The notes beneath the pieces are model-generated. The model saw only the letters and a program-made list of their open reading frames with translations, searched no databases and was not told the origin of the DNA. Below, one piece after another: positions 1-64,000 of a stretch of DNA of 64,000 bases. Origin of the DNA: Candidatus Omnitrophota bacterium (lineage in GTDB: Bacteria > Omnitrophota > Gorgyraeia > Aquiviventales > Aquiviventaceae); the NCBI GenBank assembly GCA_016193175.1, contig JACPSR010000052.1:11226-75225 (forward strand). Reading direction: 5' to 3'. A program made the translations under genes and the position numbers. Numbering within the stretch: position 1 is the stretch's first letter; each line of letters begins with the position of its first letter.

Positions 1-250
1 TGCACCACGTCCTGGACAAGCGTTGGGAAGTTCTGGGGGTGCACACCCGGTATGGCCTCATCCACCTGGCGCTCAACCTCGACCGTCACCGCGACATCGC
101 TCCCTGGAATGTTCGGCCGTGCGACCTCCAGATCTAACAAGGTGAGTCTCGGGGCCCCACTCTTCTCAGCCTGCTCCCTGGCCCAGTCGAGTTGCACCTG
201 CAGCGCGTTGAGGTCCACCAACGCCAGCGGTGTTGCGGCAGGCTCGCGTG
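1..250 (-). repeat. Internal coding repeat (pairs with 3990..4240, ~92% identical; spacing ~3990 bp), encoding PLALxDLxALQVQLDWAREQAEKSGAPRxTLLDLEVARPNIPGSDV...VDEAIPGVHPQNF.TLVQDVV.
   Basis: + strand 1-250 against 3990-4240, aligned by eye. The shadow ORFs 52..579 and 4039..4452 start with near-identical peptides. Confidence 0.9.
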
Positions 251-33200: not shown

Positions 33201-36200
33201 CAACGAAACCCCCGACGGCAGCACGTCCAGCACCTGGAGCGTCACCTCCGTCCGCCGGTCGACCCATCGATGGTTCAACAGGACGCGGAGCTCATCGTCT
33301 GACAGCCGGTCCAGCGCCATCGATTCGCCAAGCTCGTTGACGGCCTGCACCGCTTCGGGCTGCTGCAAGCGCTCCTGGAGGTACGTGAACGGAATCATCA
33401 TCGGGGTGGTAGCGGCGTCAAACCCCAGCGCCTGGTACCGCGCCTCGCTCATTTGATCGAGGTAGAGGGGAATCTTCAGCCGCGCTCGAATCGTCATCCC
33501 GCCGACCGCCACCTCCTCCCCGCGGATGAGCCGGGCGAGCTGCGCCGCTGAGAGCGACCGGACCAGCGCCGAGCGAGCCCCCCCTTCCACCGGCCGTGTC
33601 GCATCGTCCTGAAGCAGCTCGATCGGGTAGTTGAGCCGGTACCGCACCCAGTGGAGCCCCAGCCCCTCCCGACGCACCAGCGCGATCACGCCGCCGAGGA
33701 GAAGGGTGCGAAGCGTATGGATCCATCGGCGATCGAGGTTCACGGCGTCTCGCGTCCCCGGCTCGGCAAACGGGTTGAGCGTCCTCCCTGCTCCGTCCGT
33801 CAGCCGCAACCGCCCCTGGAAGTCATGCGAAACCCAGCGCTGGAAGCTGCGCAGCTCCCCGGCCAGCGAGGGGGTGAGCGGCGTGTGGCCGACGAGCAGG
33901 ATTGTCGAGTTCTCCGCCGGCACTTCGAGCACGCGGAAGTGTCGAGCGAATGGCTCAGGGATCTGGATCTCATGCGGATGCGGCGCGAGGTCCCCGTGCT
34001 TGCGCCAGAGGATCGTGAGCACTCTCACGAAGCGCCGGCGCCCCTCCAGCGAGCTGAAGAGGTCCTCCACGTCCTCTTTCGAGAGGTATTTCAGAAACAC
34101 AAAGCGGGTGGCGGCTTCCTGATATTGGAGGGAGTCCCTGATCGCCGTGGCGATTCCCCGGCCGGCCGCTTGCAGATCCTCAGGGGTTGGATCGCCGGCG
34201 CGGCTGAGGCGTTCCTGATAGAGCGCGTTGAACTCGATCTGCGAGGCAAGCCAAAACTCCTGACGAGCCTCCTCTGAATCGCGTAGGGGAACCAAGGAGC
34301 CGCTGAGGATCCCGCCCATGACCTCGTGCATGGCCCGTCGGAGCAGGCCTGGATGCTCACGCACCTCCCGGGAGCGCAGCAGGTTCTGAAGCGACTCGGG
34401 CAGGAGCCGCCAGTACCCTTCAATTTCCGTCGTGAAGGCCGCCGTAGGAGACCCCGGATGGCGGCGAACGAACTCTGCACCGCTTCTGGCCGCCTTCGAG
34501 AGACCCTGCAGCACGTTGAGCAGTCCCTCCCCGGCAGCAGTCCCTGAGAGCGAGGAAACGAGGGCGGTCAGCCCGGGATGCTCTCTGAGCGCACCATCCA
34601 GGCCAGCCAACTGCCCGGCGATGGCGCCCGTCACGCTCTCGAGGGCCCCAAATTTCTCTGCGGTTGAGAAATCCCAGTCGGGGGGGGTCGTGCGTCGCCG
34701 CTGGAATTCATCCAAATCCGGCCGATAGTCGGCGTTGCGGAGAAACTCGAGGGCGAGACGATGATTGCCCTGCGAGGTCAAGAAGTGAAAGAGGGAGAAC
34801 TCATCCACGCCCTCAGCGCTGAACACCCGCAACGCGAGATTCTCACGAGGGAGCAGGGGTTGTGGGATCTCACCTGCCGCCGCTCGCAGGTTGAGTGGGA
34901 CCTCAATGCCATACAGATATTCGACCAGCGAGGGGAGGAGCCGCAGCTCATACGGATCGCGGCCGGTCCGCAGCCTGACCTGCTGCGCCTTGAGGAGCGG
35001 AGGGCCCATCACCCCAAGGGCGATGCTCTTGCGATTCCCTTCGCTGGGATCTTCGTACGCAAGGTCGTACTGGAGCGCCGTCCAATCGGCCACCGCGACC
35101 CGCACAGCGTCCCGCACAAAGGGAAGGGCTGCCAGCGCTTGCACAAGCGAAAGGAGGCGAAGCCGCTTCAGGATCGCGTAGCCGAGATCCACCCACAGCA
35201 TCCGGGTCCTGACGTCCCGCTGCTGCCGGTACCATGCCGAGTGGAAATCGTTCTGATAATCGATCAGGCCGCGGAGGGTCTCGTATCGTTCCTCGCCCAT
35301 CCCCAGATTGGGGATCTCCCCTCCGCGACTCAAACCTTGGAGCCCTCCCGTCGGTTCGCCGATGAGAGGCCGGGTGACCGCGTCACGGAACAGCCCTTCA
35401 GAAGAACGCAGGCGCCCACGCTTCGCTTCCACATCCCTGAGGCCCTTGACGCTTCCCTCCAGCGGTCCGAATGACCCATACACGTTGAATCGCCCGTCTG
35501 GACTGGCAAAGTCCGGCACATGCTCAAACGGTTTCACCTGCTCGGCGAACTGGACGTTTCCAGCAGCCGCAACACGCACCTCCTGCCACACACTGAGGAT
35601 GGCCGTGAGGAACCCGTCCAGATCCCGCTGCAAGTCTCCATGCAGCTCATCGCTAATCACCCGGCCCGTGCGCAGCATATTCAGGAGCCGCACGGCGTCG
35701 TCCTGATTCTCGTAGATGAGCCGGCCAAGCTCCGCTTCCCAGTTGCCTCTCAACTGCGCCTCGGCGCCCAACAGAATCTGCCGACGGATCGAACCGAGCC
35801 TGAGCGTCCGCAAGATCGGTGGCGCCAGGACGACGCCTGCAAAGACCGCCAGGCCAACCGTCGCGCCGATCCACATAGCACTCACACCTGCGCCGATTGC
35901 GCCGATCCAGAGCGAGACGATCCCAAAGACCGTCACTCCACTCACCACGCCGGCAGCAAGACCCGCAAGCACGCGAGGAAGCAGCCGCCTGGGAGCCGGG
36001 GCGCTCGGTGTCGGAGCAGGTGGAACGGGTTGACCGACTGCAGGAATGTGGCCTTTCGTCGCTTTGAGCTCGTTCCAGAAACCGGTCTGGACCTCGTACG
36101 CCGCGAAGCGGAATGGCTGCTCAAGGAGGGCCGTGGCGACTCCCGCCACAAGACCCAGGTCGACCTTCTTCACGCGAGGTGACTCAGCGCGCGCATCCTC

Positions 36201-38798: not shown

Positions 38799-38802
38799 CC
38801 TC

Positions 38803-40395
38803 TTAATCGGCTTGGCCACGGCGCGCAGAAACCCTCCACTGCGCATACTTGGCCTTGAGGATCGTGGCATAGCGGGTCTTGTCGGCTTCGTCAGGGCCGC
38901 CCTGCCCCGTCAACGGCGTGACCACCACAAGCTGCGCCTGCTGCTTCGTCAGCCGCTCGATCAGGTCGCCGGTATGGAATCCCCCGGCAATCAGCGCGGC
39001 CATCCGCTCTCCGTCGGCCTCCATCTTCGAAAGCGCGCGTCGAGCCAGCTCGGCGTCGCGCGCGTGGGCGATGGTATAGAAGCGCACCGCGCGCGCCAGA
39101 TGCGCCTCAAGCGCCGTGCCGTCGCCCGCCCAGTCAAACGCCACCCCCACCCGCGCGGCGTGCCCTCGCAGCGCCGGCAGCCACTGGGTGACCCGAATCT
39201 GATCCGGTTGCTCCCGGTAGGCCTGGTAGTCCGCCGGGGTCCACTCCAACGCCGCCAATCGCTCACAGAACGCGACCCGGTCAGCCAGCGAGGTGAGCGC
39301 CGCCTCGCTCGCGGAACTCGCCAGCCGCCACTTGAGCTGCCGCTGCACCTCGCCCAACTCAAACCACAACGGCCTCGGCTCAAGGTCAGCCTTGAGCCGC
39401 AGGTAGCGAATATAGTGAACGAGGTGCGGGAAATCGGCGAGGGCAAGGTGGGCCTGCTGCGCGAGCGCCTCCAGTTGCGTGTAGAAGGTGACGGATCCGA
39501 TCTCCCCGGCGCGCAGTTTGTCCGCGGTAGCCCTGAGGGTGGCCCACTCCTGCTCGGTGGCTTGCGGGCGCAGGCGTTCCATGATCTGACGCTGCTCCTC
39601 CTCCACCTGCTTCACATCCATCTGCGCTTCCCATTCCGAAGCGGTCACCAAGCGCTGAAGATTCGGATAGGTGGCAATCGCCACGCCAAGTCGCTTGCTC
39701 TCGCCAAGCAGGGAGTCCAGGTACTCGCCAAACCCCAGCTTCCCGGCGTCGAACCGGGCCTGGATCGTTTCAAACCTCCGCAGGGCCTCATTGGGCGCCT
39801 GCGCCCGAACGCGCTCAAGCATCTGGCGAAGCTGACCGAGATCGCGCCCGACCGCTTCGGGTACCCGCTCCACGTCGAGAAACACCTTCAGATGCGCGTC
39901 GTAGAGGGTGGGGTCATCAACGCCCCAGAGGATCAGGGGATCGTCTGAGACGATGTCCAGATACTCCTCCCCGGAGAGGAAGCCGGAACGCAGACGCTCC
40001 TCCGCCACCTGCTGCCGCACCGCTCGAGAGCCTCGGCTACGCAGGTGGGAGAGGCTGACGTCTCCTTCTCCTCCCTCCACAAGGATGAGCCGGATGCCGT
40101 AGCGCGAGACGAGCCAGTCGAGGATATCGGCAAGATGCTTCTGCGCCTCATAGTTCACGTGGGTATCTTGGATCACGATCAGGAGTTTGGCGGAGGGATC
40201 CGCGGTGGGCGCTTCGTAGACTTGCGCGATGCTTCCGATCTCTGGAGGGATAAACACATCAGCGGCTCGAAGGGAAGGCACCGAGGAGGAAGATGAGGGG
40301 GACGGGGCAGGAAGCGCTACCTTCGCGAGGCTGAAAAAAAGGAGGGCGTATAGCCCGATGCCAAGAGGCCCGCCCGTCTTTTTCACGATGTTCAT
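38803..40395 (-). CDS. Secreted hypothetical protein of ~530 aa. The ORF track gives 557 aa starting at 40476, but that N-terminal extension overlaps the promoter-like AT-rich island, so the start is more likely the ATG at 40395 (MNIVKKTGGPLGIGLYALLFFSLAKVALPAPSP).
   Basis: Track ORF 38803..40476. It has a signal-peptide-like N-terminus, then a Ser/Pro-rich linker and a mostly alpha-helical body. There is only a weak resemblance (IQDTHVNYEAQKHL...IRLILVEGGEG) to the TraB/GumN/ChaN-type N-terminal segment, not enough to assign a family. TAA stop at 38803-38805. Confidence 0.7.
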   Translation of the reverse strand: MNIVKKTGGPLGIGLYALLFFSLAKVALPAPSPSSSSSVPSLRAADVFIPPEIGSIAQVYEAPTADPSAKLLIVIQDTHVNYEAQKHLADILDWLVSRYGIRLILVEGGEGDVSLSHLRSRGSRAVRQQVAEERLRSGFLSGEEYLDIVSDDPLILWGVDDPTLYDAHLKVFLDVERVPEAVGRDLGQLRQMLERVRAQAPNEALRRFETIQARFDAGKLGFGEYLDSLLGESKRLGVAIATYPNLQRLVTASEWEAQMDVKQVEEEQRQIMERLRPQATEQEWATLRATADKLRAGEIGSVTFYTQLEALAQQAHLALADFPHLVHYIRYLRLKADLEPRPLWFELGEVQRQLKWRLASSASEAALTSLADRVAFCERLAALEWTPADYQAYREQPDQIRVTQWLPALRGHAARVGVAFDWAGDGTALEAHLARAVRFYTIAHARDAELARRALSKMEADGERMAALIAGGFHTGDLIERLTKQQAQLVVVTPLTGQGGPDEADKTRYATILKAKYAQWRVSARRGQAD

Positions 40396-40447
40396 GGCTT
40401 GCTGCCTGCTACGGTTACCGCGCCACGACCATCCTAATATTAAACAC

Positions 40448-40476
40448 ATAATAATAGATTTCAAAAACATTGTCAA
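40448..40476 (-). promoter_or_regulatory. Sigma70-like promoter TTGACA-N17-TATTAT, in the only AT-rich island of the window. It would drive the 530-aa gene and the downstream megaprotein gene.
   Basis: Minus strand reads ...aattgcTTGACAatgtttttgaaatctatTATTATgtgtttaatattaggatgg. The -35 sits at 40476..40471 and the -10 at 40453..40448 with a 17-nt spacer. It lies between the stop of the 5401-aa gene (40504) and the ATG at 40395, in an otherwise >60% GC window. Confidence 0.5.
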
Positions 40477-40486
40477 GCAATTTTTT

Positions 40487-40502
40487 ATTAGTGGCTTAGT
40501 GG
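40487..40502 (-). repeat. Tandem direct 8-mer GCCACTAA x2 immediately 3' of the 5401-aa gene stop.
   Basis: + strand ttagtggc ttagtggc at 40487-40502. The TAA stop at 40504-40506 is the start of the first copy on the minus strand. No clear hairpin terminator accompanies it. Confidence 0.6.
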
Positions 40503-40503
40503 C

Positions 40504-43500
40504 TTAGTTGAAGCGTTCCGCAACATGATTCGACTTTATGCCAGGCTCCACGTCCTCGATGGTGCGACCCGCTGGGGGTCGGGGCCAGGACGGCTCAGCC
40601 TGGGGTCGATCCATCAACGCGTTCCCCGGCCCATGGAATTTTGCCGTTGGTAATGTTCCGCGTGGAGCTCCAGGAAAGGAGCCGCCGCTTGGCGGGATGG
40701 TCGGAGGCGTGTCCTTCCAAATCTTCCGGATGGCACGCTCGATGTCGTAACCGTTCCCAAGCAGGGCCAGGAACTTCACCGCGTTTTCCGGATCTCCAGT
40801 CCAATGCCCCAGTTGCCACGCGGCTCCTGCGTAGACGCTCCCTTTCAGCTCTCCGAAGGTATGCGATTCGCCATGAATCTCGACGCGCCATCCCTCGCTA
40901 CGGTACAACATTCTCACGCCACGGACCAAGTCGCGAGAGGCGAGGGCTGTGCGTTTCATCAGGCGCGCCCCTTCCTGAAAATAGCGGTCAAACCCCATCA
41001 GGTTGCTTTGGCCATAGGCCCCTTGAGAACCCCACAGGAAGACAAACGCCCAGGCCAACGCCCCCCCAGCCTTCAACCAGGGACTTGGCTTCAGATCGCC
41101 TCGCCTGATCAGGAGCTGGATGAGGTTCAAGTCCAGCGCGCGCCATCGCTCTTGTTGAGGCAATGAAGAGTAACGCATGTCTCTGAAGCGACCCCGGAAG
41201 AACTGGCGTCCCGACAACAGGTCGGCAAGGAACCGCCGGAAGGTGCGCTTGTCCGTCACCCAGGCCTTGAGCTCTTGCGCAAGAGCGGCTTTGGTCTCAG
41301 GCGGCCGATCGGCCAGCGCCCCCACCACGAATTGGATGCGCGCATCCAATTCCTTGGCCAAGAGCTCGCGCAGCAAGATCTCGATCCATCCCCGGATCCG
41401 ATACCCACCCTTTTGATCCCTGAGGAACTCAATGAGCGTGGAGCGAATCCACCGATGCAACTCTGGATAGGTTTGAAGAAGACGGCTCACGCCATCCACC
41501 AGCAAGGAACCTCGCTTGTCCGAACGACTCCCAAGGTCCTGGATGAGTTCGAGGAGGAGCTCCCGCGATTCCTCAATGCGGCCTTGGATCAATCGGGCAT
41601 GAACGTCTTGAACCCACCGCTCGCCTATCGAAGGTTGCTCGCTCCGTAGCCACCGAGCCACACGCCGTGACGGCTGACCTCCTAAGCGAGAGAGGGCGTA
41701 GAGCACGCGGGGCGTCGGGGTGGGAGGCACGAGCCCTGCGCGGAGCAAGAGATACGCCATGAGCAAGAACGCGATGCGATGGTTGTGGTCCACCAACCAC
41801 TGACCCTTCACGAGCCCGCGATACGCCCGCGCCGCCAACTGAATCGACGGCCCCTGTCGCTGCCAGGCGCGGGAGAGGCGTTCAAAAAAGACCTCAATGT
41901 CTCCCCAGTACACGCCCCTTGCCCGCTGTTGCGTCATCAGGGCCAGCTTGTCGTGCCACGCGAGGACCATGTCCTGCAGCTCTTTCGCTGAGGAGGCGGT
42001 CGTTCGGCGCGCGGCCTCCTGCAACATCATCCGCGCCGCCGCCAGAAACGCCTGCCGTTCCACCACGGCGAAGGACCCCTGCGGATCATCAAACTGATCC
42101 AGCGCGCGGTCCCAATCCTCCAGATTGACCTGATCAACGGGGGCAACGAGCTGCGGCGTCTCGCCGTCTCTGAGCGACGAGGATCGTCCCCAACGGTGTC
42201 GCCGCAGCCACCAGGGCCAGGCGAGGCCGACGGCGACCATGAGGAGCGAGAGGGTCACCCAATCCGGCGCGAGGCTAAGCGCGGCGTGGCGAACGGCGGC
42301 CTCCACCGGTACAGCGGCGAGCAGGATCATGCCGACGGCGACCGCGAGCGCAAGCGGGAGCGCCTTGACAGCTGATTGCTTTTTCGCACGCGGCTGGGTA
42401 GAATTGAGGAGGAAGGAGCTTGAGCGATGGACATCACGTTTGATGAGCACGCTGACGCCCTCTACATTCGGTTTCAACCCGGCAAGCGCGTCAGGAAGAC
42501 GGTGAAGTTGCAGGACGGGTTGCTGGTCGATCTCGACCGATCCGGTAGGATCTTCGGAATTGAGATTCTCGACGTGAGCCATCGCATGCCCATCGCGCAG
42601 CTCGGACACGTGAATATCAACCTTCCCGTCCACGCGTAGCCGCTCCACTGCGCGTTCCGCCAACGCACCCACCACCAAGACGCTAGTGATCGGCTCCGGC
42701 CCCCCGCCCATTGAACCGGCGGTGAATTTGATACGGGGCAGCTTGTCATGGGTATCCTCGGGAGAATCGCTCGTACCACCGTTGCCGCCGACCACGGCAA
42801 TCATTATCGTTGTGCCGAGGCCGACCAGGAATGCGAGGGCGCCCGTCAAGTCCGGTGCAAGCAACCAGACCAGAAAGCCGCCGAGGATGGGCGCCGCCTG
42901 CACCGTCGAGCCACCGAGGGTGAACTTCTCCACGAGACTATCGATCGTCTCCTGATAGGACTCAGCCGATCGGAACGTTGCCGGTCGCGCGATCACACCA
43001 GGGAAGTACGGAGCCATGAGCGCCTCAAGCTGTCCTTCCACTGGATGCAACTGCGCTCGTAACCGCACCGCTTTGCGCGCGCGAAAGATCTCAAGAAGCC
43101 AACCCAGCGAAGTGGCTGTCTGTGTGGCCTTCTCTTCGTTCCCGCTGACGTCGTCCAAGAGGACGGAGGCGTTCGTTTGCTTCAACGCGCTCTGGACCCG
43201 ACCGTAAGGCGCAGCGGTCCTGAAGCGCCTTGCCGCATATCGCAAGCGGTTTCTCAAGCCGGCCGCCACTTCGTTCGTCTTCGTCTTGGCGGGCAAGTCG
43301 GCAAACCGTTGCAGGGCTTTCTCTGCTGAGACGAGAAATCGCTCTGGGGTCATCTGGCGCCTTCCAGATGTTGTTCCGCGGATCAGGTGCTTGATCCCAG
43401 CGGGAATGACCTTGCGCAGTGGGTCGGAAACCAGTTCGATTTGTTGAGCCGGCGCCGGCTTGGAAGGTTCGGGAGCAGGCGTGCCGACCGCCCATCCCCC

Positions 43501-46500
43501 GCCGCCTCCGCGGCGACCAGCGGAGCGGTGGTGGTGATCGGCCCACGGAAGGTTTTCCCACGCGCCACGGAATCGATCCCCATGCCGATCCCGCTCCCCA
43601 TGGTCCCGCTCGCCATCACCCGATGGCGTTCGAGGATCCCCCTGCCATGGCTTCGCCCGTTCAAAATCCAGGAGCCGCTGAACTACTTCCTGCAATCTGT
43701 CCGGGAGAAATTCAACGCCCACCGCATAGGCGCCGAAGGTATTGGGGGCGTCCTCATGGGTATGATCAAACCATTCAGCGAACAGCCGAAGGGAGGGGAC
43801 CTCAGCGCCGCTGGCTCGGAGATACTCAACGAAACGTTGGACTTGGCGTTTCGCCTGTTCCGCTTCCTGGCGAATGGGTTCAAGAAATCTCTGGTACGCC
43901 TGGCCCAGCGGCGGGAGCTGATGGGTCTCTAACTCCGCAGGGGTGAGATAGCTCCTATAGGAGCGGCTGTCAAAATCCCACTCCTTCCCCCAGAACTGAA
44001 TCACAAACTTCCCCCACGCTGGATTCAGAGAGGGACGGAAGTCTCTGGTCAATAACCGATAGGGGGTAGAACGCAGCTCCGGCAGGCGCTGCAAGTCTTT
44101 CGCCTGCTCCACGATCTCGAGCCCGACTTGACGCGCGGACTTCCCAAGCTGACTCCCCTTCTCCAGGAGCAGCTCATACAGGAAATGGGCGGAGAGCCCA
44201 TGCGCAATCGTGTTCCTGCCAGCCGTTACGATCTCCTCGACCGCCTGTGGTCGGTGCGTTCGAAGCCAACGCCAGGTTCGGTCAGCAGTCAGGGCGGCGG
44301 ACAAGGACCGGTCATGAGCTTGAAGAACGGTCTGATAGTCCGTCCCGCCGTACGCTTGCGTCACGCTGTCCTTGAGCGCCTGGAGATCAAAACCTGGAGC
44401 CGCCGGCATCTCGCGCAACGCGTGCCACTCTTCAGGGATGAATGCCACCACGACCTTTTCCGCACCATCCATAGCGACGAGGGAGCCTTCTGGAACTCGA
44501 CGCTCAACCCTCGCGCCGCGCCCCCACTCCCACACATGACGGACAAGGGCTCCCTCATCAATCTCGGTCGGATAGGACTGGTTGAAGGCGACGACTGGAA
44601 CGTCGAAGTATTGGAGCAGTTGTCGCGTATGGGTCCCTGGAGCAACGCCCTCTGACAGGATAACGCCGCTCAAGCGGTTGGCCGAGAGCAACTCCTTGAG
44701 CAGGTCCTGTTGGCCCTCTTGGGCCACGAAGATGATCGGTTCGCCCGAGCGGATCGCCGCCAACGCGCGCTCCCTCGTGAACACCAGATGCCCCACCACC
44801 ATGTCGGTGCCACTGAGCCGGGAGGGATCCCCCACGATGACTCGACGTTTCGCGGTGTCCATGTCGCGGAACCGGCCAACCATCGTCTTCCGCGGTGGGG
44901 ATGAGTACTGGAGCCGCTCAAGGACCGTGGGGATCAGATCAATTGTGGAAGCACCCGCCTCCCTCGCCTGACGCTCGATCAGAGGGAGGAGGGCTGCCGG
45001 CATCAAGACCTGGGGTTGCGCCTGTGTGATGAGCACCCGCCCATGCGCGAAGGCAAACTCAATATCCTGGGGAACGTGATGGCGAGCTTGGACGATCCGT
45101 TCCCTGAGCGCTGAGAGCTGCTCGAAAACTGCGGGGAACCGGCTTCGAAGTTCTTGCACGGGAACTAAGGACCTTCCCTGAACCAATTCGTCACCGGAGG
45201 CGGTCACACGGAAAGACCCAAAGAGACCCGGTTCTCCGGTTTGAGAATCATGGGTTGAGAACATTCCAACGCCCGAATCCTCATCCAGCGTGTTGAGCAT
45301 TGGGCTCAGGATGACCGCCACAGGCGCTGGTCCTGTCTGTCCATGTATCACGCGGAAATTCTTGACGGCGTCAGCGCGACCTGACTGGACGACAGCTTCA
45401 ATCGCCGCCACGAGTTGGTCGTGCGGGTCCTCGGGAATGCGGAAGCCGGATTCGGCGATGATGCGCTCGAACGCGTTGGCGACTTCCTCAGGGCTACTGG
45501 GTTTGTTGAGTGCCCGGTCAAACGACTGTGCAGGCATCTTCAAGACCCCCACGGCCCAACTCCGCAACCAGGCCGCGTACGTCCGGAAAGCCACCGGCTC
45601 TCCCCTGGAACGCTTCAGACCTTCCAAGACATCCCTGGTCATGCCCACGAACAGCACCGAGGTCAACAGCCCTGGGTATGCTTGGTCGGCTGAACTTCTC
45701 ACTGCCAAGAGGAGCGGTGCTTCTGCATCACCAAGTTTGGTGCCGGTCCGTTGCTCGAGCTGGCGGAGCCCCTCTTGGAGCTGCTGTTGGTAGGACCGGA
45801 CGTGAGCGGCTGCCTGAACGGTGAGGACGAGCGCATCAGGCGTCGGGATGCCAAGCTGCCGGAGCTCGGCAAGCGCTTTGGCCTTTTCGCCGATTTCATC
45901 CACCGAGAGGGTCGCCGCGTCATCGAGCATCACCGTCGGCGGCTGAAGCGGCTTGCTCGAACCTGTTTCCACGCGCCCGGGCCCTTGGCTATGGAACCGG
46001 CGGTCCTGATGTCCAAACATCCGCTCCAACGGACTCTGCCTGAGTTCGGGCGGCAGATAGTGCTCTTTCTCTTCTGGTGGCCCGCGCCGCCCCGTGCGTC
46101 GTCCTCGCCCGCGCGGTTCCTTCGGTGGTGCGGCTTGCGGTTGAGCCGCCTGCAGCGACCGGATGAGCTCGTCGATTGCCGCGTTCATTGCCTCATCGAT
46201 CCTACTCTTCGTTTTGACCGCTTCATCCAGGTGCGTCCTGACGGCCCCATCGCTGATCATCGTCGCCAGTGCCTCGAGGCGATTTCCTTTCAGCTCTGCC
46301 GCCTCGGCCTTTCTCGTCATGGACTCGATCGTCTGAAGGGAGAGCTTGGCGTGAGATTCTGCCGCGGCCTTCGCCAGCCGCTCAACCAGGAGCTTCGGCG
46401 CCGGCGTTTCCGCTTGCAAGACCAGGGCCAATGCCCACGCGCGCCCGGTCGCCCAGCCTTCCGGAGGCGTGACGCGGCCGGTCTCCTCCGCTTGGTGAAC

Positions 46501-49500
46501 CACCGCCTCGGCTTGCTGGCGAAGCTCGGCATCAAGCTCAGAGCGCTTCAGAATTTCAGGCAACGCCTCTGCAAGCTCTCTTGCGAGCCCATCAGCCCCA
46601 AGCGCAGAGGTCCGTTGCTCCATGACGAGTTGAGCGTGAACTCGCCGATCCTCCTCAGCCTGCTCGCGCGTACGCGCCAGTTTCGCTTCGAGCGATGGCC
46701 TGACGGCGTCAAGCTGCGCTCGCTGCTCGGCCGAGAGATCCAGCGCATCGAGCCATCCGATCAATTCAACAGCAGCCGTCAGCTCAGCCTCATCGCTGGA
46801 CGAGCGCTTGATGAGGCTCACGGCCAGCCCCTCGCCTCCCTCAACGAGGTAGTTGACGATGCGCGGCGTGAGGGTCTGGAGTCCTCTCGTCATCTGGAGA
46901 AGCTCTGCCAGCGTCGGGGGTGCGGGCTCTTGAGCGATCGCGCCATACCCGTGGAGCGTCTCGATGAGCGCTTGATGCAACGTCTGTGCGGCCTCGTTCC
47001 ATTCCGCCTTTTTGAGGTGCAGGCGACCGCTCAGGAAGAGCAGATCCACGTAGGTCCATCCGACCACTGGCCTGATCGATTGAGCCAAGCTGAGCGCCTC
47101 GCCGATCTCTCGCCTGGCGCCGTCGAGATCGCCGAGGCGGAGCAACGCCTCTGCCAGGTATCGTTTGATCGCGACGGTCCCCGCAGGGGTGAACCACCCC
47201 TTCGTTTGGTCCTGCGCCAAATCGCTGACTCCTAGCTCAAGCTGCCCGCTCTGTCCGCTGAACAATCGGATCGAGCCGCGAGTCACGAGCGCACGCGCCT
47301 GGGCCTGTTCCAGCTCCCTGCGCCTGCGCGTCAACTCGGCTTCATGTGGCGCGTTGGCTGCTGATCCCGCCTCCCGCGCCAGCCGTTTCAATCCCTCGTT
47401 GGCTGCCCTCAACTCGGCCTCGATCTTCCGCACCACGTCTTCCATCTTGTTCGTCGCCGGCTCATACCGCTTCAGTCCCCAGAGGGCGAGCGCTTCGGAT
47501 CGGAGGACCGCCCGGTCCATCCCCTCTTTCCGTTGTCGATCCTCCACCCCATACACGCTGCGGGCACGACGCCCCAACTCCAACACCTTCTCATAGGCCT
47601 GGGGCTCCTCAGTGTCCAACGCATGCTGGAGCTGCGCGGCGGCCATCTGGGTCAAGAGGTATTTCTCCTGGACTGGCGGATCATTCAGGAACGCGGTGTA
47701 CGCCGCCCAGTCGAGCGGCTCGGTCCTGATCGACTGGAGCAGCGTCAACGCCTCCGTCAGCGCCTCCAGGCTCTCCAGCGCTCGCGGACGGTCAAGCTCC
47801 AGGAGGCTGACGCCGAGCACCCGTGAGATATCCATGAGCAAACGGCGGTCGCCTGGCCGCATCCGCTTCGCCGTATCCCGCGCGGTGGTCAGCCACTGGA
47901 CCGCCTCGTCATAACGACCGCGCAGATACGCCACGCGGCCCGCTGCGAAGCGGCTCACGATGTCCTCCGCATTGACGTCAAGGGCCCGCGCATATTCCTG
48001 TCGCGCAGCCTCGATCTGCCCCGCCTGTTCCAGATGGAAGGCGCGCAGAGAGGCCTCGGCAGCGAGCAGCCGATTCGAGGCCGTTTCTGGATTGATGCGG
48101 CTGCGGATCGCTTCAAAGAGCTGCTGGATCGTCGAGGACGATGGCCCTGCGACTTCTTTGAGGCGCATGACCGCTTCCAACACGAGAAACGCCAACAGCT
48201 GGCGCTCCGGCTCCGGCTGCTTGGCATACACACGGCCCAACGCGCGCAGGGCCTCTCCCAGCGGAGGATGATAGGCGATCAGGAGTTGCCGTCCTCGCAC
48301 AACGCTCACGCCTCGTTTCTCGAGCTCTCGGACGCGCGCCTTCCCCGCCTGCTTGAGGGCCGCCACCAAGATCGGCACATCCGATTCGGTGTCCCGAAGG
48401 GGCAGCGTCGGACCCAAGAAGCTGCACCCATGGGCCAGCACCCGACGAAATCGCGTGATGGCCTCCTCGACATTGTTCGCTTGCTCCGCGACCCGCCCCT
48501 TCACGACGTCCAGCGCGTCATCGATTGTCGGATGCGGATCGGCCCCATGCGCCCGCTCATAGAGCCGGCGAGCCCCTTGGAGGTCGCCTTCGGCATAGGC
48601 CAGGTGGCCCTGGAGCATGAGCGCGTAGGCCAGCACCGAGGGCTGCCGCTCAGCGAGGATGGCGGAGTAGCGTCTCAGCTCCTGGATGGACGCCCGCGCC
48701 TCGTTGTGGCGATCCAAGCTGTAATAGGTTTGGGCCTTCGTGATGCCCACGATCGCAGCGAACCGCTGGATCTCTCTCAGCTCGGCAGGGCGTTTCGTGC
48801 GTTTCGCAAGCGCCTCAAGCGCCTCGATGGTCTCGTCAAACAACCGAAGCCCCTCGTCGGGCCGCCCCAATTCCACCAGGGCATCTGCCAACTTGTAGAG
48901 CAGCTCCGCTCTGATCATCGAGGGGTCCGGCGCGAGCACGAGCGCCTCGCGCGCAGACTCTTCAACCTCTTCGTATCTGTTCAGGCGGAGTGCCTCTTCG
49001 AGACGGCCAGCCTGCTCATGCCCTTCTCCCTGCTGGAACTGCTTGTGCGCCTCGGCCTTCCGCTGCTGCTGCGCCTTCGAATCGCCTGTCGCAACGGTGG
49101 GATCGATCCCAACTTTCAGTGGAGGGGAGTCCCCTGGCCTCGTGGCGGCTTGAGGCGTTGGCTCAGCAGGCTGGGACGATCGGGGAGGCTCAGGCGGTGC
49201 CGGTGGGGGCGCCGGCGTAATCGGTGGAGGAGGGATTTTGGCCGACTCCTTCGGCGCTGCGTCCCCCTCGACAGCCTGGCCTTGCAGTTCTTGCGGAAGT
49301 CCGTTGACTTCCGCGCCCAATTGCTCGATCTCAGCCCGCAACTTGCCTGCTTCGTCTTGGTTCACCTCACCTGGCTTGAGGGCCCGCTCGGAACGATCTT
49401 TGAGCGTCTTGATCCGCTGTTGCAATTGGTCCAAGAGCTTCCAATCGTCGATGACAGCCAGCCGTCGCCGCTCACTGTCGGGGACGAGGGTGCCGCCGCT

Positions 49501-52500
49501 CGCGTAATCATATGCGTTCCACGGTGCCTCAAGCTCCAGCTCCTCATCGCCAATCACGTTGCGATGCCCGCCCCTTCGATGCGCGCGATCCGATCGCTCC
49601 GTTCGGTTCACCCTCGCCCCGCCATTTCCCATGTTGCCCGGCGCGGCAGGGCCAAGGCGTCGCTGGGTCTCGTAGCGCTCAACAAGGAATTCGATGTCGG
49701 ATTCGTTAAAGGCCGGATCAGCGCGCGTTAGCGACTGCTTCAATGGGTTGCGGAGATCTTCCGCTGTAACCTTATGATCAACAACCTTGACGATCAGGTC
49801 GAACAGTTGCTGGGCTTCCTCGTAATCGCCCCGCATCTGGGCCAGCTGAACCAAGCGCCTCACCGCCTTCACGGTGAACGAGGGATCAGCAAAGTCAGGG
49901 AATTCCTTGGCCTCCGTAAACAGTTGAAAATACTTCTGCAAGACCATGTGCCGATGCTCGCTCGCATTGGCGCTCACGGCTGCTTGCAGCGCGGCGAGGG
50001 CCTTAGGGGTCGCGAAGTACCACTTATCAGGATGGTAGGGAAACTCGGGGAACAGCGGGTATAAGAGCTTCCTGACCGGCATGGGTCTGAGACACACATC
50101 CACGTGAAGGTGTACTCCGACCAGCTCGAATTTCTTCGCAATGGCCGATGTGAGGGTCTGGGATCTTTGGCGTCGATTCAGGTCTATCACGCCAAACTCG
50201 CTAAAGAAGTCATCTGACCACTCGTCAGGGAGGTAGAGGACAATGTCTAACTCAGGCTCTCCGTTCACGTGTCCAATACCTGGCCAGTAGATCTTCCCCT
50301 CGCGATCACGCAGGTAGGCGACGCTCCCCCCAATTTCGATGATGATGCGGTCAGGCTGAAAATCCTCGGGTGTTTTGACAAGCTGTCGCTTAATCGCTGG
50401 CCAGACTTCCCTGATGGCCTCGTCAATCAGATCGACAACGTTCACTCGTGTGTGGCGGATTGCTGAGTCAAGAGACGCGGGTGGGAGGTCGAGCAAGTGT
50501 TTATCTTTTGGCTGGTACGGCTGCTCCGCGTTGGCTTGGTCGAGGATCGCCGTGACTTGAGCGGTTTGCTTCACCGCAGGCGACTCCTCAGACGGCACCT
50601 TGGCGGCGTCGGGGTTGGGCGGCTCGTTGACGCTGATCCCATCAAGCCCCTCTGTGGCGATCTCGCGAGGAGTCGGCTCAAGGTTTCTGGACGGGGATAT
50701 CGCCGCCGATCCCTGAGCTTCCTCCTTAAGGACCTGCTGGAACTGGGCGAGCAGGGGGTCGTGAACGAGCGGATCAAGTCGCTTCACCCACGCCCTGGTC
50801 AGTGTGAGCCCGCCCTCCCATGCCATCGGCTCTGGAAGGTCCTCCTGGTGATAGCCTAACCCTGGCATGTCCTGATCATAGACGATATCCGCCAATGCCC
50901 TCGCGATGCCTGGCGATTCCACGTCTGATTGAACGTCTGGGGGCCACCGCTGTTGAATCTGCTCACTGGTGGGGCTGACGATTTGTTCAACCCCCACCCC
51001 CCGCGCATACGCTTCAAGACCCAACCGCATCTCCTTCTGCCAGTCCCTGTAGCGCGATTTGGTCGTTCCCTCCTGACGCAAGGCTCTGTAGACATCGCTT
51101 TGGATCGCGCCGATGACGAGGGTCTTGCCGCGGAGATAGAAGTGGACATACGCCAGGGCCCCAGGCACGTGTCCCCCCGGCAATGAGAGCGGCTGGGCTT
51201 CCAGCACGCGAAGCTCCTGATCATCTGGGAAGAGGGCGAGCACGCGGGCCTCAAGAGGCACTCCGTCCACGCGGGCGGTCGCGAGATACGGAACGGTCCG
51301 CAGGCGGCCTCCAAAGAGTCTGACGGTTACTCCGTTGGCTTTCAGGGTCGCTCCACCAGGTGGGGGTCGAATGGAGGCCTGAAACGTCGGGACACCAAAC
51401 AGCACATCGCCAATGACCAGTCGTTGCGCATAGGGGATCGATCCGAGATGTTGACCCAACTCGGCCATGATCCCGTATCGTTTCACCTCAGGAAGCTGCG
51501 CCAGGGCCCACGCAAGATGCCGTGGGCCGATCGCTCCCTCGCGCAGGCTTGACGAGAGCGCCTGGGCGGCGTGGGCATATTGTTCTGACTCTTCTTCGCT
51601 CAGGAACTGAGGCGCGCGCGGCACCTTCAAGGATCCTAAGATCGGCGTGACAGACTCGATCTTCGCTGCGTCGCCAAGCCGGTCGTGTGGGGGAGACGCT
51701 CGCTGGCTCACCTCGCCCGGCGCGGGCGGCTGGGCATCGGTGTCGGCGGCTGGATTTGATGCGGGCGGCGCGGCGGCGGGGGGCGTCTTTCCGTTCTCAA
51801 TCGCGGGGTGTGGCGCGGCTCCCGGCGTCCGAGTCGCGATGAGGATGCCGGAGGTCGACCGACCGATGGCGTACTCGTACGGCTGCACGTGGAACCCTCG
51901 GTCCTCGAGCATGCCTCGAATGCGGTGAAACGCGCGGACATGCCGATGGTTGACCTGCCCAAATTGTGAAAGGAAATACCCTGAGTTAATGAGCAGTTGA
52001 ATCTTCGGTCGCCGGCTTAGGAAGTCAACCGCCATCTCATTAGCACGGCGATAGTTGTTCCAAGGCCCAATGCTCACAAGGGCGCTGGTCGCCTGTTCGA
52101 GAGGCGAGGAAGGCTCCGCGAGTGCAGCGAGATCAATCGGGTCGGTCAAATCGGCGTGCCGGATCGTGAACTGGCCGCCCTGCCCCGCACCCTCACGCCA
52201 CCCGTCGGCCAGCAGCAGCGCTCGGGCCAACTCCAGGACAGGCCGCTTCTTGTCAATCAGCACCGCGTGGCGAGCGCCAAGCCGCAAGCCACCCCGAGAG
52301 TGGATCCCCGATTCCGCCCCCGCATCGACGACCGTCGCGCCTGGGAAGTAGTCCGCATACCCGAGCATGGAGGCGAATGTTCCTACGGTGTAGTCATTGA
52401 AGGGATGGTCCGTCGCGTATGAGGGCGCGACGAAGAGGAAATTGCCTGCGGTGCTGGGGTAACGATCCTTCAGGTGCGCTGCGAGGCGCGCCCGGAACTG

Positions 52501-55500
52501 CTCAATGGTCTGTCCAATTCGCCGCTGGAGCGTGGGAGGATCATGGTGAAAGCGCTTTTCATCTCCTTTTGCGCTCCGGAAGATGAGGAAGATGAACGGC
52601 CCGATCCGGTACAAAGCCGGTAGACCTGGTCCGTAGGCGCGCTCGAACCCGACGCGGTGACCGTTGATCTCAAACTCGTAATCCGTCGTTAAGGCCCCGA
52701 CGGGTGCAAAGGCATGGATCGACGATTCAGCCAAGTCCACGGCGTCATCCTCGCTGAGCCATTGCATGGCCCTCTGACCGGCCTCACCGTCATGGCGCTC
52801 CTCCGGGGCCGGGGGAACGCCGGGTGGCTGATGCACCATCGTGAACGCGGCGGTGAGGGCGGCGCCGACGGCGAGGCTGAGTCGCGCGAAGCCAGCGCGG
52901 CTGAGGAGGGGTGCAGCCTCGGCGCCGGCGAGATACGCGACCGCGGCGAGGAGGCCGGCGACGAGCCATGCCGCGCTGAGGAGGAGCAGGAGCTTGGGGA
53001 GCTTCTCCCTGAACCGGACCAGGGTTGCCTCGATCCCTGCAAAATAGCTGGGCAGGGCTTTCCCTAATTGGCTTCGATACACTTCCGCCTCTCGGCGGAT
53101 CTGCTCCGCAAGCGCGGGCTGGGTGGGTTCCGCTTGTTGGGCGAGCTGCTCGAATTGTTCCAGGGTGATGAGGATGGGGTCGCGCGTAAGTGTTCGTGGC
53201 GCTTGCCCCGCCGTCAGTTCTTGGGGAGAAGCGGGCGGCGCGCGGCCGGCCGCCCGGCGCGCGAACCAGGCGCTGAGTTGTTGAGCTCCGCGCGCTACTC
53301 GCCGGAGGACCCACAGGCCGGCAGCAACCCCGCCGAGCGCCAGGGCGTATGGCAGCAGATGAAGGGCCCGGGTCAGGGAGAACACCATGACAGGACCAAT
53401 GATTGCCGTCTCGGGCGGGAGGGTCTCCACAACCCACGTGGCCAGCGTCAGCCCGAGGGTCATCGCGAGCCCGAGCGTGCCAACCCGCAGCCAGCGCCGG
53501 CCTCTCGCGCCAGGCCCCGCGCTCGTTCCGAGGAGCGCCAGGGCCACGAGGGCGGCAAGTCCGCTCAGAACGGGGAGGGCGGCGCCAAGGCTGGCCCAAT
53601 CAACCGACGGGCCTCGAGCGAGGTCCACCACCCCCTCCGCGGAGGTGCCGGCCAGGAGCGCGCCGAGGCCCACGATCCAGGCCGCCAGCCGGCCGGAACC
53701 AGAACCCCGTACCCTTCTTCTCACGACGGTTTCAACCCGCTTCCCCTGAGCCTGAGACGCTGACTCCAGGAGGGTTTCCGCTTGCTTGACGTGCTCCACG
53801 ATGTCCTTCAGGATCTGCGTGGCCTGACGATAGTCGGTTTCCTGTTTCGGCCACTGCTCCACGCGGTGATCGATGCGATTCTGCACCGTCTCTACGTCAT
53901 GCCTGATGGCCTGAAGGGTAGCCACGAGACGTTTCTGCAAATCCTTCAGCGGCCTCTGCTCGCCCAAGGAGCGACGGATACGCTCCAGCAGACGCGCAGT
54001 CGTCTGCGTGGCCTTGCCTAACCGCTCTTCCAGGATCCGCGGCGATCCGATTTCATTCTTCGCAACCTTGAGGGGGTAGGTGCGCACGTCCTGCCAGTCT
54101 TGGAGCAACTGTCGCCAGGCGATGACAGTGTCTTCGTCAAAAACCCTCATGGATGCGGCGAAAAACACAGTCGTCTCGAGGGGACTCCATGTCGGCGTTA
54201 ACCCGGCCCACAGCGCGGCAAGCTGGGCCGCTGCCGCCAGCGCCAGGACGAGCCAGGCGATCGTGATGAGCGGGATCACGCCGTCCTCACGGGGCGAGGC
54301 ATCCTCGGCTGGCTCCTCACGTACCGGCCTGGCGAGATCGATGAGGTCGGCGTAGATCCCCTCCAGGTAGCTTCGGAATCCTTGGAGTCTCTTGGTCGCA
54401 TCTTCGGGTGTGACGAGTGACGGGTCCGCTCGCGGGTCAAGGATCAAGGCCCGAGTCACCCCCTCAAACTCGCGCGCCAGCTCGTCAAGGTGAGGGCTGG
54501 GGGCGCCGGCCTTCGACCACAAGGACAGAAAACCTTCCCTAATCTGCCGAATCAACGTGTGCGCTTCGCCGAACTCCCGACGCTGACGCTCCGTCTGCTC
54601 CACAAGCGTCTGCAGCACCAGACGGCTTCGTTGTAGCCTAAGGAGGAGGATGAATCGCCTCAGATTCGGACGGCTGAAGAGATCGGTGGTACTCGTCAGC
54701 GCCTCCTCGGTCAGCGTCCACGCTTGCTCGACATGAGCGAGCCGATCCCGCTGGTCCATCTCCTGAAGATTGCCATCCAGAAGGCGCACGGCCTCATCGA
54801 CATCCACGGCGGCCGTCTCAACGATCAGATGCACCGGATACATCCCTGACGCGCGGTTGCCATCCTGTGGCCCGGGCGGCTCGGTGGGCGTGAGATCCTT
54901 CGCCCTCAACGCGGCTCGGATCGCCCTGATCATCGCCCATGGCCGATCACTAAAGCCAAGTCGAACAAGCTCAGCCTCATCTGAGGGTATTTCGCGGATT
55001 GAGAGCAGCGGGGGGGTCTTGGCCAAAAAGGTCTCTTTGATCCACTGATCAGTCTCGGGTCTCTTTGAAAAGCGCACATTCACGATGAAGTCCGGATCTT
55101 CTTGGAACCGGATCCTGCGAGCGGCCAAGGCGCGTGTCAAGTCCTTGAACTGCGCCAAGTGCGACCAGACCGAGCGATCAGGGGACTCGGCTTGGATCAG
55201 CCGGAAGACCTCGAAATCGGTCTTGGAGAGCAACTCGAAGATCGTGTGACCTAGCAGGATGATCTCCTGATCGGTGAGGATCGGGCGCTGGCCGCCATGT
55301 GCAGAAAAGAGTGCGTTCTTAACGAAGCCATCGCGACGCCATCCTGGAAATGTCCGGTTCTCAAGAAAGTTCGGATTCTCCCGAAGCCTGATGCCGTACG
55401 TGGCCAGGGTGTGCTTCAGGTCGTAGAACCGCTTGCGATACCACCAGCCTGGAGCGACTGGGAAGTGCTCGATGAGCAGGCGGAATACCTCCAAGTCAGT

Positions 55501-63998: not shown

Positions 63999-64000
63999 TT

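Follow-up and report, generated by a model that had tools for sequence, protein, structure and literature searches.

A PPDK-type ATP-grasp and phospho-histidine unit with a conserved extension in the barrel position, inside a giant protein of Candidatus Omnitrophota

We describe a unit related to pyruvate phosphate dikinase (PPDK) in a stretch of 64,000 nucleotides (nt) from contig JACPSR010000052.1 of a Candidatus Omnitrophota bacterium, called the window below. The unit lies within ORF-B, a minus-strand open reading frame (ORF) that encodes a membrane protein of 5,401 amino acids (aa), and consists of an ATP-grasp domain, a phospho-histidine domain and a new domain (window 43651-45903, minus strand, aa 3603-4353). 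Judged by alignment, the order of domains is that of PPDK with the barrel swapped out, and the new domain takes the place of the barrel. It is already known that there are PPDK-derived kinases without a barrel and that PPDK_N domains occur in giant multi-enzyme proteins. What is new is that a conserved domain without a recognisable fold stands in for the barrel in this lineage, and that the His relay appears to be retained; furthermore, the three-part unit forms a small, distinct subfamily, found both as stand-alone proteins and inside giant proteins. The finding extends known themes rather than adding a new principle, in a group of proteins that is among the least understood of bacterial gene products.

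The host ORF and the parts of the unit are as follows; residues are numbered from the ATG of ORF-B unless GTG numbering is indicated.

40504..56709, minus strand: ORF-B, host of the PPDK-like unit, 5,401 aa from the ATG at 56707-56709; the stop-free ORF spans 40504-56826
45004..45942, minus strand: ATP-grasp nucleotide-binding domain of PPDK type, aa 3590-3902
44806..45003, minus strand: linker from the ATP-grasp to the His domain, aa 3903-3968, partly helical, partly of low confidence
44428..44805, minus strand: phospho-histidine swivel (central) domain, aa 3969-4094, divergent
44629..44631, minus strand: codon of His4027, motif GTH, aligned to TSH and His455 in C. symbiosum PPDK
43651..44427, minus strand: lineage-specific C-terminal extension, aa 4095-4353, about 260 aa, in the position of the barrel

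A first-pass annotation of the window had placed an ATP-grasp and swivel module at 44400-45970. The motifs that it quoted all lie in this one minus-strand ORF (VRSSAD at aa 3670, PQDIEFAF at aa 3880, VLITQAQP at aa 3892 and GVAPGTHTRQLL at aa 4021). Its interval corresponds to aa 3580-4104, from the ATP-grasp domain through the linker to the His domain, but it is too short, as the unit continues for about 780 nt on the 3' side, to 43651. Its "SFAGQ-like" motif is present as well, but actually reads AYPGLLTS, which is of the PPDK type and stands opposite SMPGMMDT.

Domain structure of the unit

As a query for the ATP-grasp and His domains we used a 560-aa excerpt of ORF-B (window 44350-46029), referred to as the module. 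Pfam PPDK_N (PF01326) matches it with E=2.6e-11, and the N-terminal 360 aa with E=3.4e-12 (46.7 bits, cut-off 27), which upholds the PPDK_N-type ATP-grasp domain of the first-pass annotation. Note that PPDK_N was missed when Pfam was run on ORF pieces of 2,700-4,400 aa, and that tiles of 600-1,000 aa were required. Among the NCBIfam models, the best are PRK05878 (short PPDK, NF004531; E=1e-39, 136.6 bits with the cut-off at 456, and a match confined to profile positions 9-299 of 534) and TIGR01828 (PPDK; E=1e-38, 132.9 bits, below the trusted cut-off of 843). In the PDB, the PPDK entries 1dik/2dik align over chain residues 18-433 with E=1e-31, and the C. symbiosum and plant structures range from E=1e-31 to 1e-25. 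The identity of the module to PPDK is about 27%.

The structural model agrees with this. The AlphaFold2 (AF2) model of the module has a pLDDT of 78.9 and a pTM of 0.73, with most of the ATP-grasp region above pLDDT 90 and the linker at 46-51 over module residues 371-410. Its top Foldseek match is PPDK 1kbl (E=1e-32, TM-score 0.74, root-mean-square deviation 3.8 Å, 536 columns). A homologue search with the module returned canonical PPDKs only, at 33% identity or less, and a scan of GTDB genome contigs likewise gave canonical PPDKs only; there was no match in a scan of viral contigs. From metagenome contigs we obtained a single locus, rejected as spurious, with a glyS gene and a canonical PPDK. 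Judged from these matches, the ATP-grasp domain is real and specifically of the PPDK type.

The first-pass annotation had assigned the module to the PEP-synthase (PEPS; PEP, phosphoenolpyruvate) and rifampin phosphotransferase (RPH) branch. On this reading the module would phosphorylate an antibiotic-like or other small molecule, which we consider highly improbable. The logic of an ATP-grasp domain, a swivelling phospho-His and a non-pyruvate acceptor is shared, and RPH, PEPS and GWD belong to the same mechanistic family; both RPH and GWD phosphorylate an acceptor other than pyruvate, and water takes up the gamma-phosphate. There are also weak matches to the NCBIfam models of PEP synthase (PRK06241/PRK06464, best E=8e-6, 24 bits against a cut-off of 883), RedH/PigC (E=2e-4 and 4e-3) and RPH (NF041857, E=0.023, 13 bits against a cut-off of 999), with PEPS, PigC, RedH and RPH together spanning E=8e-6 to 0.2, all below their cut-offs. 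Foldseek finds PEPS 2ols and RPH 5hv1 at about 1e-7 and a TM-score of about 0.3 (5hv1: E=7e-8, TM-score 0.33). However, these scores lie at least 20 orders of magnitude below those for true PPDK (E=1e-31 to 1e-39 by sequence) and far under the family cut-offs, and the similarity in sequence and fold is marginal. The domain order differs, too. In RPH the acceptor-binding domain is inserted ahead of the C-terminal His domain, whereas here the ATP-grasp domain is followed by the His domain and then by the extension; an equivalent of the rifampin-binding or of a carbohydrate-binding module was not detected in the unit. Neither the branch nor the RPH-type architecture proposed earlier is supported.

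The His domain is divergent. In MAFFT alignments with 9 and with 29 PPDKs, residue H467 of the module (His4027) falls in an invariant column, and GVAPGTHTRQLL stands opposite GGMTSHAAVVA. An hhalign comparison of four subfamily members with nine canonical central domains gave a probability of 88% (E=2.9e-6, 99 columns), with GTH placed on TSH. The motif is thus G-T-H where PPDK has T-S-H, and the equivalent of Thr453 is lost. Foldseek matches the domain to the phosphoryl-carrier domain of PPDK (2fm4, TMt 0.73), and in the AF2 model His4027 is located at the N-terminus of helix 467-474. By alignment and predicted fold, then, the catalytic His is retained.

After the His domain no barrel follows, as the first-pass annotation had said. 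The Pfam TIM barrel family PF02896 was not found in ORF-B (600-aa tiles), nor in the two other giant ORFs of the window, ORF-A and ORF-C (900-1,000-aa tiles). A custom hidden Markov model (HMM) of the PPDK C-terminal barrel, run with --max and all filters off, had no match in any ORF of the window. The absence of a PEP/pyruvate TIM barrel is therefore confirmed for all 64 kb, and since the barrel is absent, the unit cannot make PEP.

Instead we find the extension of about 260 aa. The homology to two relatives, P0151 and P0152 (see below), runs in blastp from aa 3642 to 4390-4392 (GTG numbering), that is, for about 260 residues beyond the His domain, and a local MAFFT alignment shows the conserved motifs AHFLYELLLEKG, VIQFWGKEW and VGVEFLPDRLQEVV. 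Of 300 retrieved proteins, just three, all metagenomic, are matched by an HMM of the extension: P0151, P0152 and, in part, P0266. Modelled by AF2 (pLDDT 58.6), the extension consists of a helical bundle and four strands, which is not a (beta/alpha)8 arrangement. With phmmer, the extension and its flanks had no sequence match in the PDB; Pfam gave nothing but sub-threshold noise for the extension (e.g. HisKA, E=0.009), and an alignment of the His domain plus extension, used as a homologue query, had no match.

One could ask whether the barrel is supplied from elsewhere. In such a split PPDK the unit would carry out the ATP/Pi half-reactions, and a TIM barrel beyond the window or in another gene would act in trans, completing a tethered gluconeogenic line from pyruvate to PEP and on to PGK, GAPDH, TIM, FBPase, GPI and PGM. 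ORF-A does contain PGK, GAPDH, TIM, GPI and PGM domains together with the gluconeogenesis-specific FBPase, and PPDK would be the entry step; both ORF-A and ORF-C leave the window, with further domains beyond. West-Roberts et al. (10.1101/2023.11.21.568195) read PPDK domains in giant proteins as pyruvate/PEP interconversion. Nevertheless, the roughly 21,000 visible aa contain no PEP-utilizers_C, pyruvate kinase or enolase domain, the position of the barrel is filled by another conserved domain, and the stand-alone proteins P0151, P0152 and P0301 have no barrel either. Moreover, the unit has lost the equivalent of R337, which is said to have a role in the Pi-dependent step, and the swivel of canonical PPDK generally acts within one polypeptide or dimer, across defined interfaces. 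We therefore regard a split PPDK as very unlikely.

Catalytic residues and relatives

Residues were compared in the numbering of C. symbiosum PPDK, by way of the 1DIK alignment. The module keeps K22 (K3609), R92 (R3671), G101 (G3680), D321 (D3882), E323 (E3884), Q335 (Q3896) and H455 (H4027). In PPDK of F. trinervia, the equivalents of R92 and E323 contact ATP directly (PMC5507339). For three of the positions compared or discussed here, PPDK mutant structures are among the Foldseek matches in the PDB (R337A, K22A and T453A). Lost are R134/R135 (A3712/A3713), R259 (H3820) and R337 (Q3898), and further changes concern E279/D280, which read Asp-Glu, and K340/R341, which read Val-Leu.

R337, R135 and R259 are missing in all four members of the subfamily, and THD replaces TRDP/TRNP throughout. 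Because these changes are common to all four, they are traits of the subfamily and not random decay. The loss of R337 and R135 suggests that the gamma-phosphate is handled in a different way. According to mutagenesis of the C. symbiosum enzyme, R337 reportedly contributes to the Pi/gamma-phosphate site; if this is right, the chemistry of the unit may resemble that of a water dikinase (AMP + Pi) and not the Pi-dependent reaction (AMP + PPi).

To find relatives of the unit, ORF-B aa 3441-4640 (GTG numbering) was used as the query of an exhaustive HMMER search against 1.84 billion representatives. The closer relatives are P0151 (1,416 aa, E=1.4e-77), P0152 (1,553 aa, E=9.4e-63) and P0154 (953 aa, E=9.8e-42). 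In blastp, P0151 shows 33% identity over 839 columns (E=1.5e-87) and P0152 gives E=3.7e-67, with the His kept in both; P0151 keeps the full core set of catalytic residues. The gene of P0151 lies directly 3' of a gene of at least 3,565 aa, and P0152 and P0154 are encoded by genes of ordinary size among housekeeping genes. P0160 is also moderately close; this partial protein with several domains comes from a metagenome-assembled genome annotated as Candidatus Omnitrophota.

The barrel is absent from 119 of the 150 best representative hits, and about 45 of these are 725-800 aa long; P0155, P0157 and P0168, for example, carry the PPDK_N and PEP-utilizers domains only. Judged by these hits, barrel-less derivatives of PPDK are common. 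Such free-standing proteins of about 725-800 aa resemble our unit in that both are PPDK-like, have no barrel and continue for about 260 residues past the His domain. They differ from it, since the C-terminal regions of the P0155/P0157/P0168 type are not matched by the extension HMM, and PF00391 recognises their His domains as canonical (E about 1e-21).

The relatives also concern the gene next to ORF-B, which encodes a protein of 530 aa. In P0163 and P0301, a homologue of this protein is fused, on the N-terminal side, to a PPDK-like ATP-grasp and His unit (P0163 locus: L008 4747-8688; P0301: PF01326 at 1e-22 and PF00391 at 2.4e-7, without a barrel), and the gene upstream of P0163 carries another PPDK_N-like copy. 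Because of this fusion, a functional link between the 530-aa neighbour and the dikinase unit is suggested, and the 530-aa protein may be its functional partner. The part of P0301 homologous to the 530-aa gene has a weak match to the Tiki/ChaN superfamily (E=0.017).

Two minor points concern the borders of the unit and of its relatives. Just upstream of the unit, at window 46141-46461 (minus strand, aa 3417-3523), there is a match to PEP-utilisers_N (helical N-terminal domain of PTS Enzyme I; E=0.0015), a family from the same enzyme superfamily as PPDK. Its 19.1 bits fall short of the cut-off, which is 24.4. We rejected it as probable helical noise because the homology to P0151 and P0152 begins only at aa 3642 (GTG numbering). 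In P0152 (L006 787-5448), the motif (A)GLEE recurs at the apparent domain boundaries, and a single copy immediately precedes the dikinase unit of P0151; the motif may act as a linker or in processing. The ORFs of the window do not contain it.

Function of the unit

In PPDK, the ATP-grasp domain pyrophosphorylates the His, which is resolved to His-P in a Pi-dependent step; the carrier domain then swivels to the barrel, where pyruvate is phosphorylated. For the unit in ORF-B we propose a PPDK-derived, ATP-driven His autokinase or phosphorelay with an acceptor set by the extension or by neighbouring domains, and we give this proposal an even chance of being right. By analogy with VadK, the ATP-grasp domain would use Mg-ATP to phosphorylate His4027, and the swivel domain would carry the phosphoryl group to an acceptor other than pyruvate. 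The binding site for this acceptor would be in the C-terminal extension, or in a domain or protein next to it within the giant assembly of enzymes. The unit is a single cassette of a locus whose giant multi-enzyme proteins are anchored in the membrane. When the transmembrane segments are read by the positive-inside rule, which is a heuristic, the loop of ORF-B from aa 1293 to 4607 (about 3,300 aa) falls in the cytoplasm; this is weak evidence that the PPDK-like unit is located there, with ATP accessible to it.

Among known proteins, PPDK itself (1DIK/1KBL, TIGR01828) comes nearest: the ATP-grasp domain, linker and His domain of the unit all resemble it most in sequence and fold, and they follow one another in the same order; the differences are the missing TIM barrel, the unrelated domain of about 260 aa in its place and the location within a 5,401-aa membrane protein. 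The closest tested precedent, and in our view a better one than RPH, is VadK (Rv1127c) of M. tuberculosis, a derivative of PPDK without a barrel. VadK autophosphorylates His422 with Mg-ATP, the mutants H422A and R106K are non-functional, so that the R92 equivalent and the His are needed in vivo, and the protein does not make PEP but associates with metabolic enzymes, including those of the methylcitrate cycle, and acts on or with them (PMC13400623). Like our unit, it has an ATP-grasp and a His domain and no barrel, and its family (PRK05878) is the best NCBIfam match of the unit. On the other hand, the unit scores below the equivalog cut-off and is not a member of that family. VadK is a soluble actinobacterial protein of about 490 aa that ends after the His domain, whereas the unit has the extension and sits within a giant protein. 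Furthermore, the VadK-like protein P0010 (Nocardia) keeps R337, R135 and R259, all of which are lost in the unit.

Several observations weigh against an active autokinase. Pfam PEP-utilizers (PF00391) does not detect the His domain even at E<=10, and so the swivel domain of the first-pass annotation stands on the MAFFT and hhalign placement of the His and on the 2fm4 fold, but not on the Pfam search. The AF2 model rests on an alignment of canonical PPDKs, and its PPDK-like shape is partly so by construction. The extension has no Foldseek match at E<=0.001 and no recognisable fold. Besides the arginines mentioned above, Q240 is changed to Ser, T253 to Val and T453 to Gly, and the module retains 54 of the 141 columns whose conservation reaches 90% or more in an alignment of 29 PPDKs. 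In the relatives, D321 has become Gly in P0152, which keeps K, R, E, Q and H, while P0154 has Gly for the His and EIRF for DIEF, with loss of the Mg-binding Glu; catalysis is thus not conserved across the subfamily. The N-termini of P0151, P0152, P0154 and P0163 are signal-peptide-like or lipobox-like (e.g. ...LALALPPSAHA|L; LLVAAC), and export of these stand-alone relatives would be hard to square with the use of ATP.

Several of these points would fit a pseudo-enzyme or scaffold, i.e. a decayed remnant of PPDK that serves as a structural, nucleotide-sensing or docking module without phosphoryl transfer. Such a remnant would explain why 87 of the 141 highly conserved columns are altered, including the equivalents of R337, R134/R135, R259 and T453, why PF00391 is blind to the His domain, and why P0154 is without the His and the E323 equivalent and P0152 without D321. 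A degenerate Fic-like domain of ORF-B, which has no catalytic His, hints at decayed enzyme domains in this very protein. However, the equivalents of K22, R92, G101, D321, E323, Q335 and H455 are all kept, both in ORF-B and in its nearest relative P0151, and the PGK domain of ORF-A looks intact (E=1e-100, full length), so that the enzymes of the locus are not generally decayed. We judge a pseudo-enzyme to be possible, if rather unlikely.

A more speculative idea, which we think quite unlikely, is that the unit represents an unrecognised class of dikinase cassette for a non-pyruvate acceptor, for example a tethered enzyme domain or a glycan, that moves between stand-alone proteins with signal peptides and giant proteins. 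Given the signal-peptide-like N-termini of the relatives, such a cassette might even have its site of action beyond the cell that makes it, on or inside a prey or host cell.

Returning to the autokinase or phosphorelay, if the His relay is indeed retained, modules of this sort are likelier to serve as histidine (di)kinases like VadK, with a regulatory role or a specific acceptor, than as enzymes of gluconeogenesis. The "glycolysis machinery" of giant proteins would then need rereading, and a PPDK_N match should not automatically be taken for pyruvate/PEP interconversion. As a fragment of 750 aa, the unit is compact and expressible, and lends itself to biochemical testing.

Relation to giant proteins and layout of the locus

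Giant proteins of Omnitrophota with HEAT, TPR, TIM, GPI, FBPase, PGM/PMM and aldolase domains have been described, with PPDK_N among their top-20 domains and PPDK domains "frequently" contained (West-Roberts et al., 10.1101/2023.11.21.568195). Two preprints of 2026, one of them by Nielsen & Lui, likewise report PGK, TIM and PGM domains and a "multi-enzyme metabolic" class of giants. The text searched in these papers reports PPDK_N, but says nothing of an absent barrel, a retained His or the extension; in that text, the string "PEP-utili" is absent from West-Roberts et al., and PF01326 and PF00391 are absent from Nielsen & Lui. Compared with the "Archaeovorins" and multi-enzyme giants, the proteins of our window are likewise very long and anchored by transmembrane segments, and combine HEAT/TPR repeats with TIM, GPI, FBPase, PGM/PMM, PGK and PPDK_N domains. 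Here, however, this content is spread over at least three adjacent ORFs (at least 2,430, 5,401 and at least 12,950 aa) and not contained in one protein of more than 30,000 aa.

The window has a GC content of about 0.63, and its 64 kb are almost wholly taken up by minus-strand genes. From right to left, the remaining features are:

56706..64000, minus strand: ORF-C, at least 2,430 aa visible, exits the right edge of the window; AAA_12 helicase domain (C-terminal part, at the visible start), Sigma70_r4 helix-turn-helix (HTH), 11 hydrophobic segments
about 61260-61412, minus strand: Sigma70_r4 HTH of ORF-C, Pfam E=2e-8
ORF-B, from N- to C-terminus, minus strand: N-terminus with several transmembrane segments, Sigma70_r4 HTH, TPR block, PPDK-like unit, transmembrane segments, degenerate Fic-like domain
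55642-55773, minus strand: Sigma70_r4 HTH of ORF-B, aa 313-356, Pfam E=5e-10
ORF-B about aa 2574-3248, minus strand: TPR block (Pfam)
41746-41895, minus strand: degenerate Fic-like domain of ORF-B, aa 4939-4988, Pfam Fic E=0.0026, below cut-off
40448..40476, minus strand: candidate sigma-70-like promoter, TTGACA-17-TATTAT, 11 of 12 matches to the consensus
38803..40395, minus strand: 530-aa gene, N-terminal hydrophobic anchor, no Pfam family
3..38846, minus strand: ORF-A, megaprotein of at least about 12,950 aa, exits the left edge of the window

The Pfam domains of ORF-A are:

DnaJ, E=1e-13
PGK, full length, E=1e-100
GPI, cupin type, E=2e-30
TIM, E=5e-22
FBPase, glpX type, E=3e-24
GAPDH, E=2.8e-07 (N-terminal) and 2.7e-18 (C-terminal)
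Glu/Leu/Phe/Val dehydrogenase, E=3.9e-29
PGM/PMM, E=3.8e-23 (I), 3.8e-10 (III) and 6.8e-05 (IV)
ARMT1-like phosphatase, E=9.2e-11
HAD hydrolase, E=1.2e-11
HEAT repeats (HEAT_2), E=2.7e-24

The glycolytic theme that had been noted for this neighbouring megaprotein is thus real, with PGK, GPI, TIM, FBPase, GAPDH and PGM domains, and it is gluconeogenic as well; together with the adjoining PPDK-like unit, these domains come close to a gluconeogenic enzyme set. Pfam on tiles of ORF-A gave no PEP-utilizers_C, pyruvate kinase, enolase, PGAM or aldolase domain. Long stretches of the protein are without a Pfam match (e.g. aa 250-3600 and 4300-6200). A homologue search with the PGK domain returned solely free-standing PGKs with at most 46% identity. 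The N-terminus of ORF-A (window about 38660-38846) is signal-peptide-like and reads ...SPAMAVPSAFA|WGQ.

About 30 plus-strand ORFs of 150-530 aa lie in one frame between 1 and 38 kb, and a recoded stop or a pseudogene was considered for them. We rejected both because these ORFs lie antisense to the minus-strand frame of ORF-A, which is free of stops, and are only its shadow. No internal paralogy was found among ORF-A, ORF-B and ORF-C, and no second PPDK-like copy in the window, which has one unit only. The window also contains no detectable tRNA gene or Rfam family, and two stretches of ORF-B, one methyltransferase-like and one nucleotidyltransferase-like, have no significant match in the PDB. 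The proteins of the window have no close homologues among 5.8 billion proteins and no orthologue in the GTDB representatives.

Since the visible part of ORF-C opens in the middle of AAA_12, this ORF must be longer than 2,430 aa. Its TGA stop and the ATG of ORF-B overlap as ATGA (window 56706-56709), which indicates translational coupling of the two giant genes. A short AT-rich region follows right after the stop of ORF-B, ahead of the 530-aa gene and ORF-A, and contains the promoter-like TTGACA-17-TATTAT site; judged by this site, the 530-aa gene and ORF-A may be transcribed together as a unit of their own. A low-GC region ahead of another giant gene is noted in a 2026 preprint.

The Fic-like motif of ORF-B reads ...QWLVDHNHRIAFLL..., compared with HxFx(D/E)GNGRxxR, so that the catalytic His and both Gly residues are substituted. 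In ORF-B and in ORF-C, the Sigma-70 region-4 HTH comes soon after a cluster of transmembrane helices in each case, which would tether a DNA-binding HTH to the membrane within giant proteins. Finally, window 28803-42597 has fragments with 100% identity in the Logan assemblies SRR12113390, SRR12113401 and SRR12113419, where the giant genes are fragmented; at least this part of the window has therefore been assembled independently and reproducibly.

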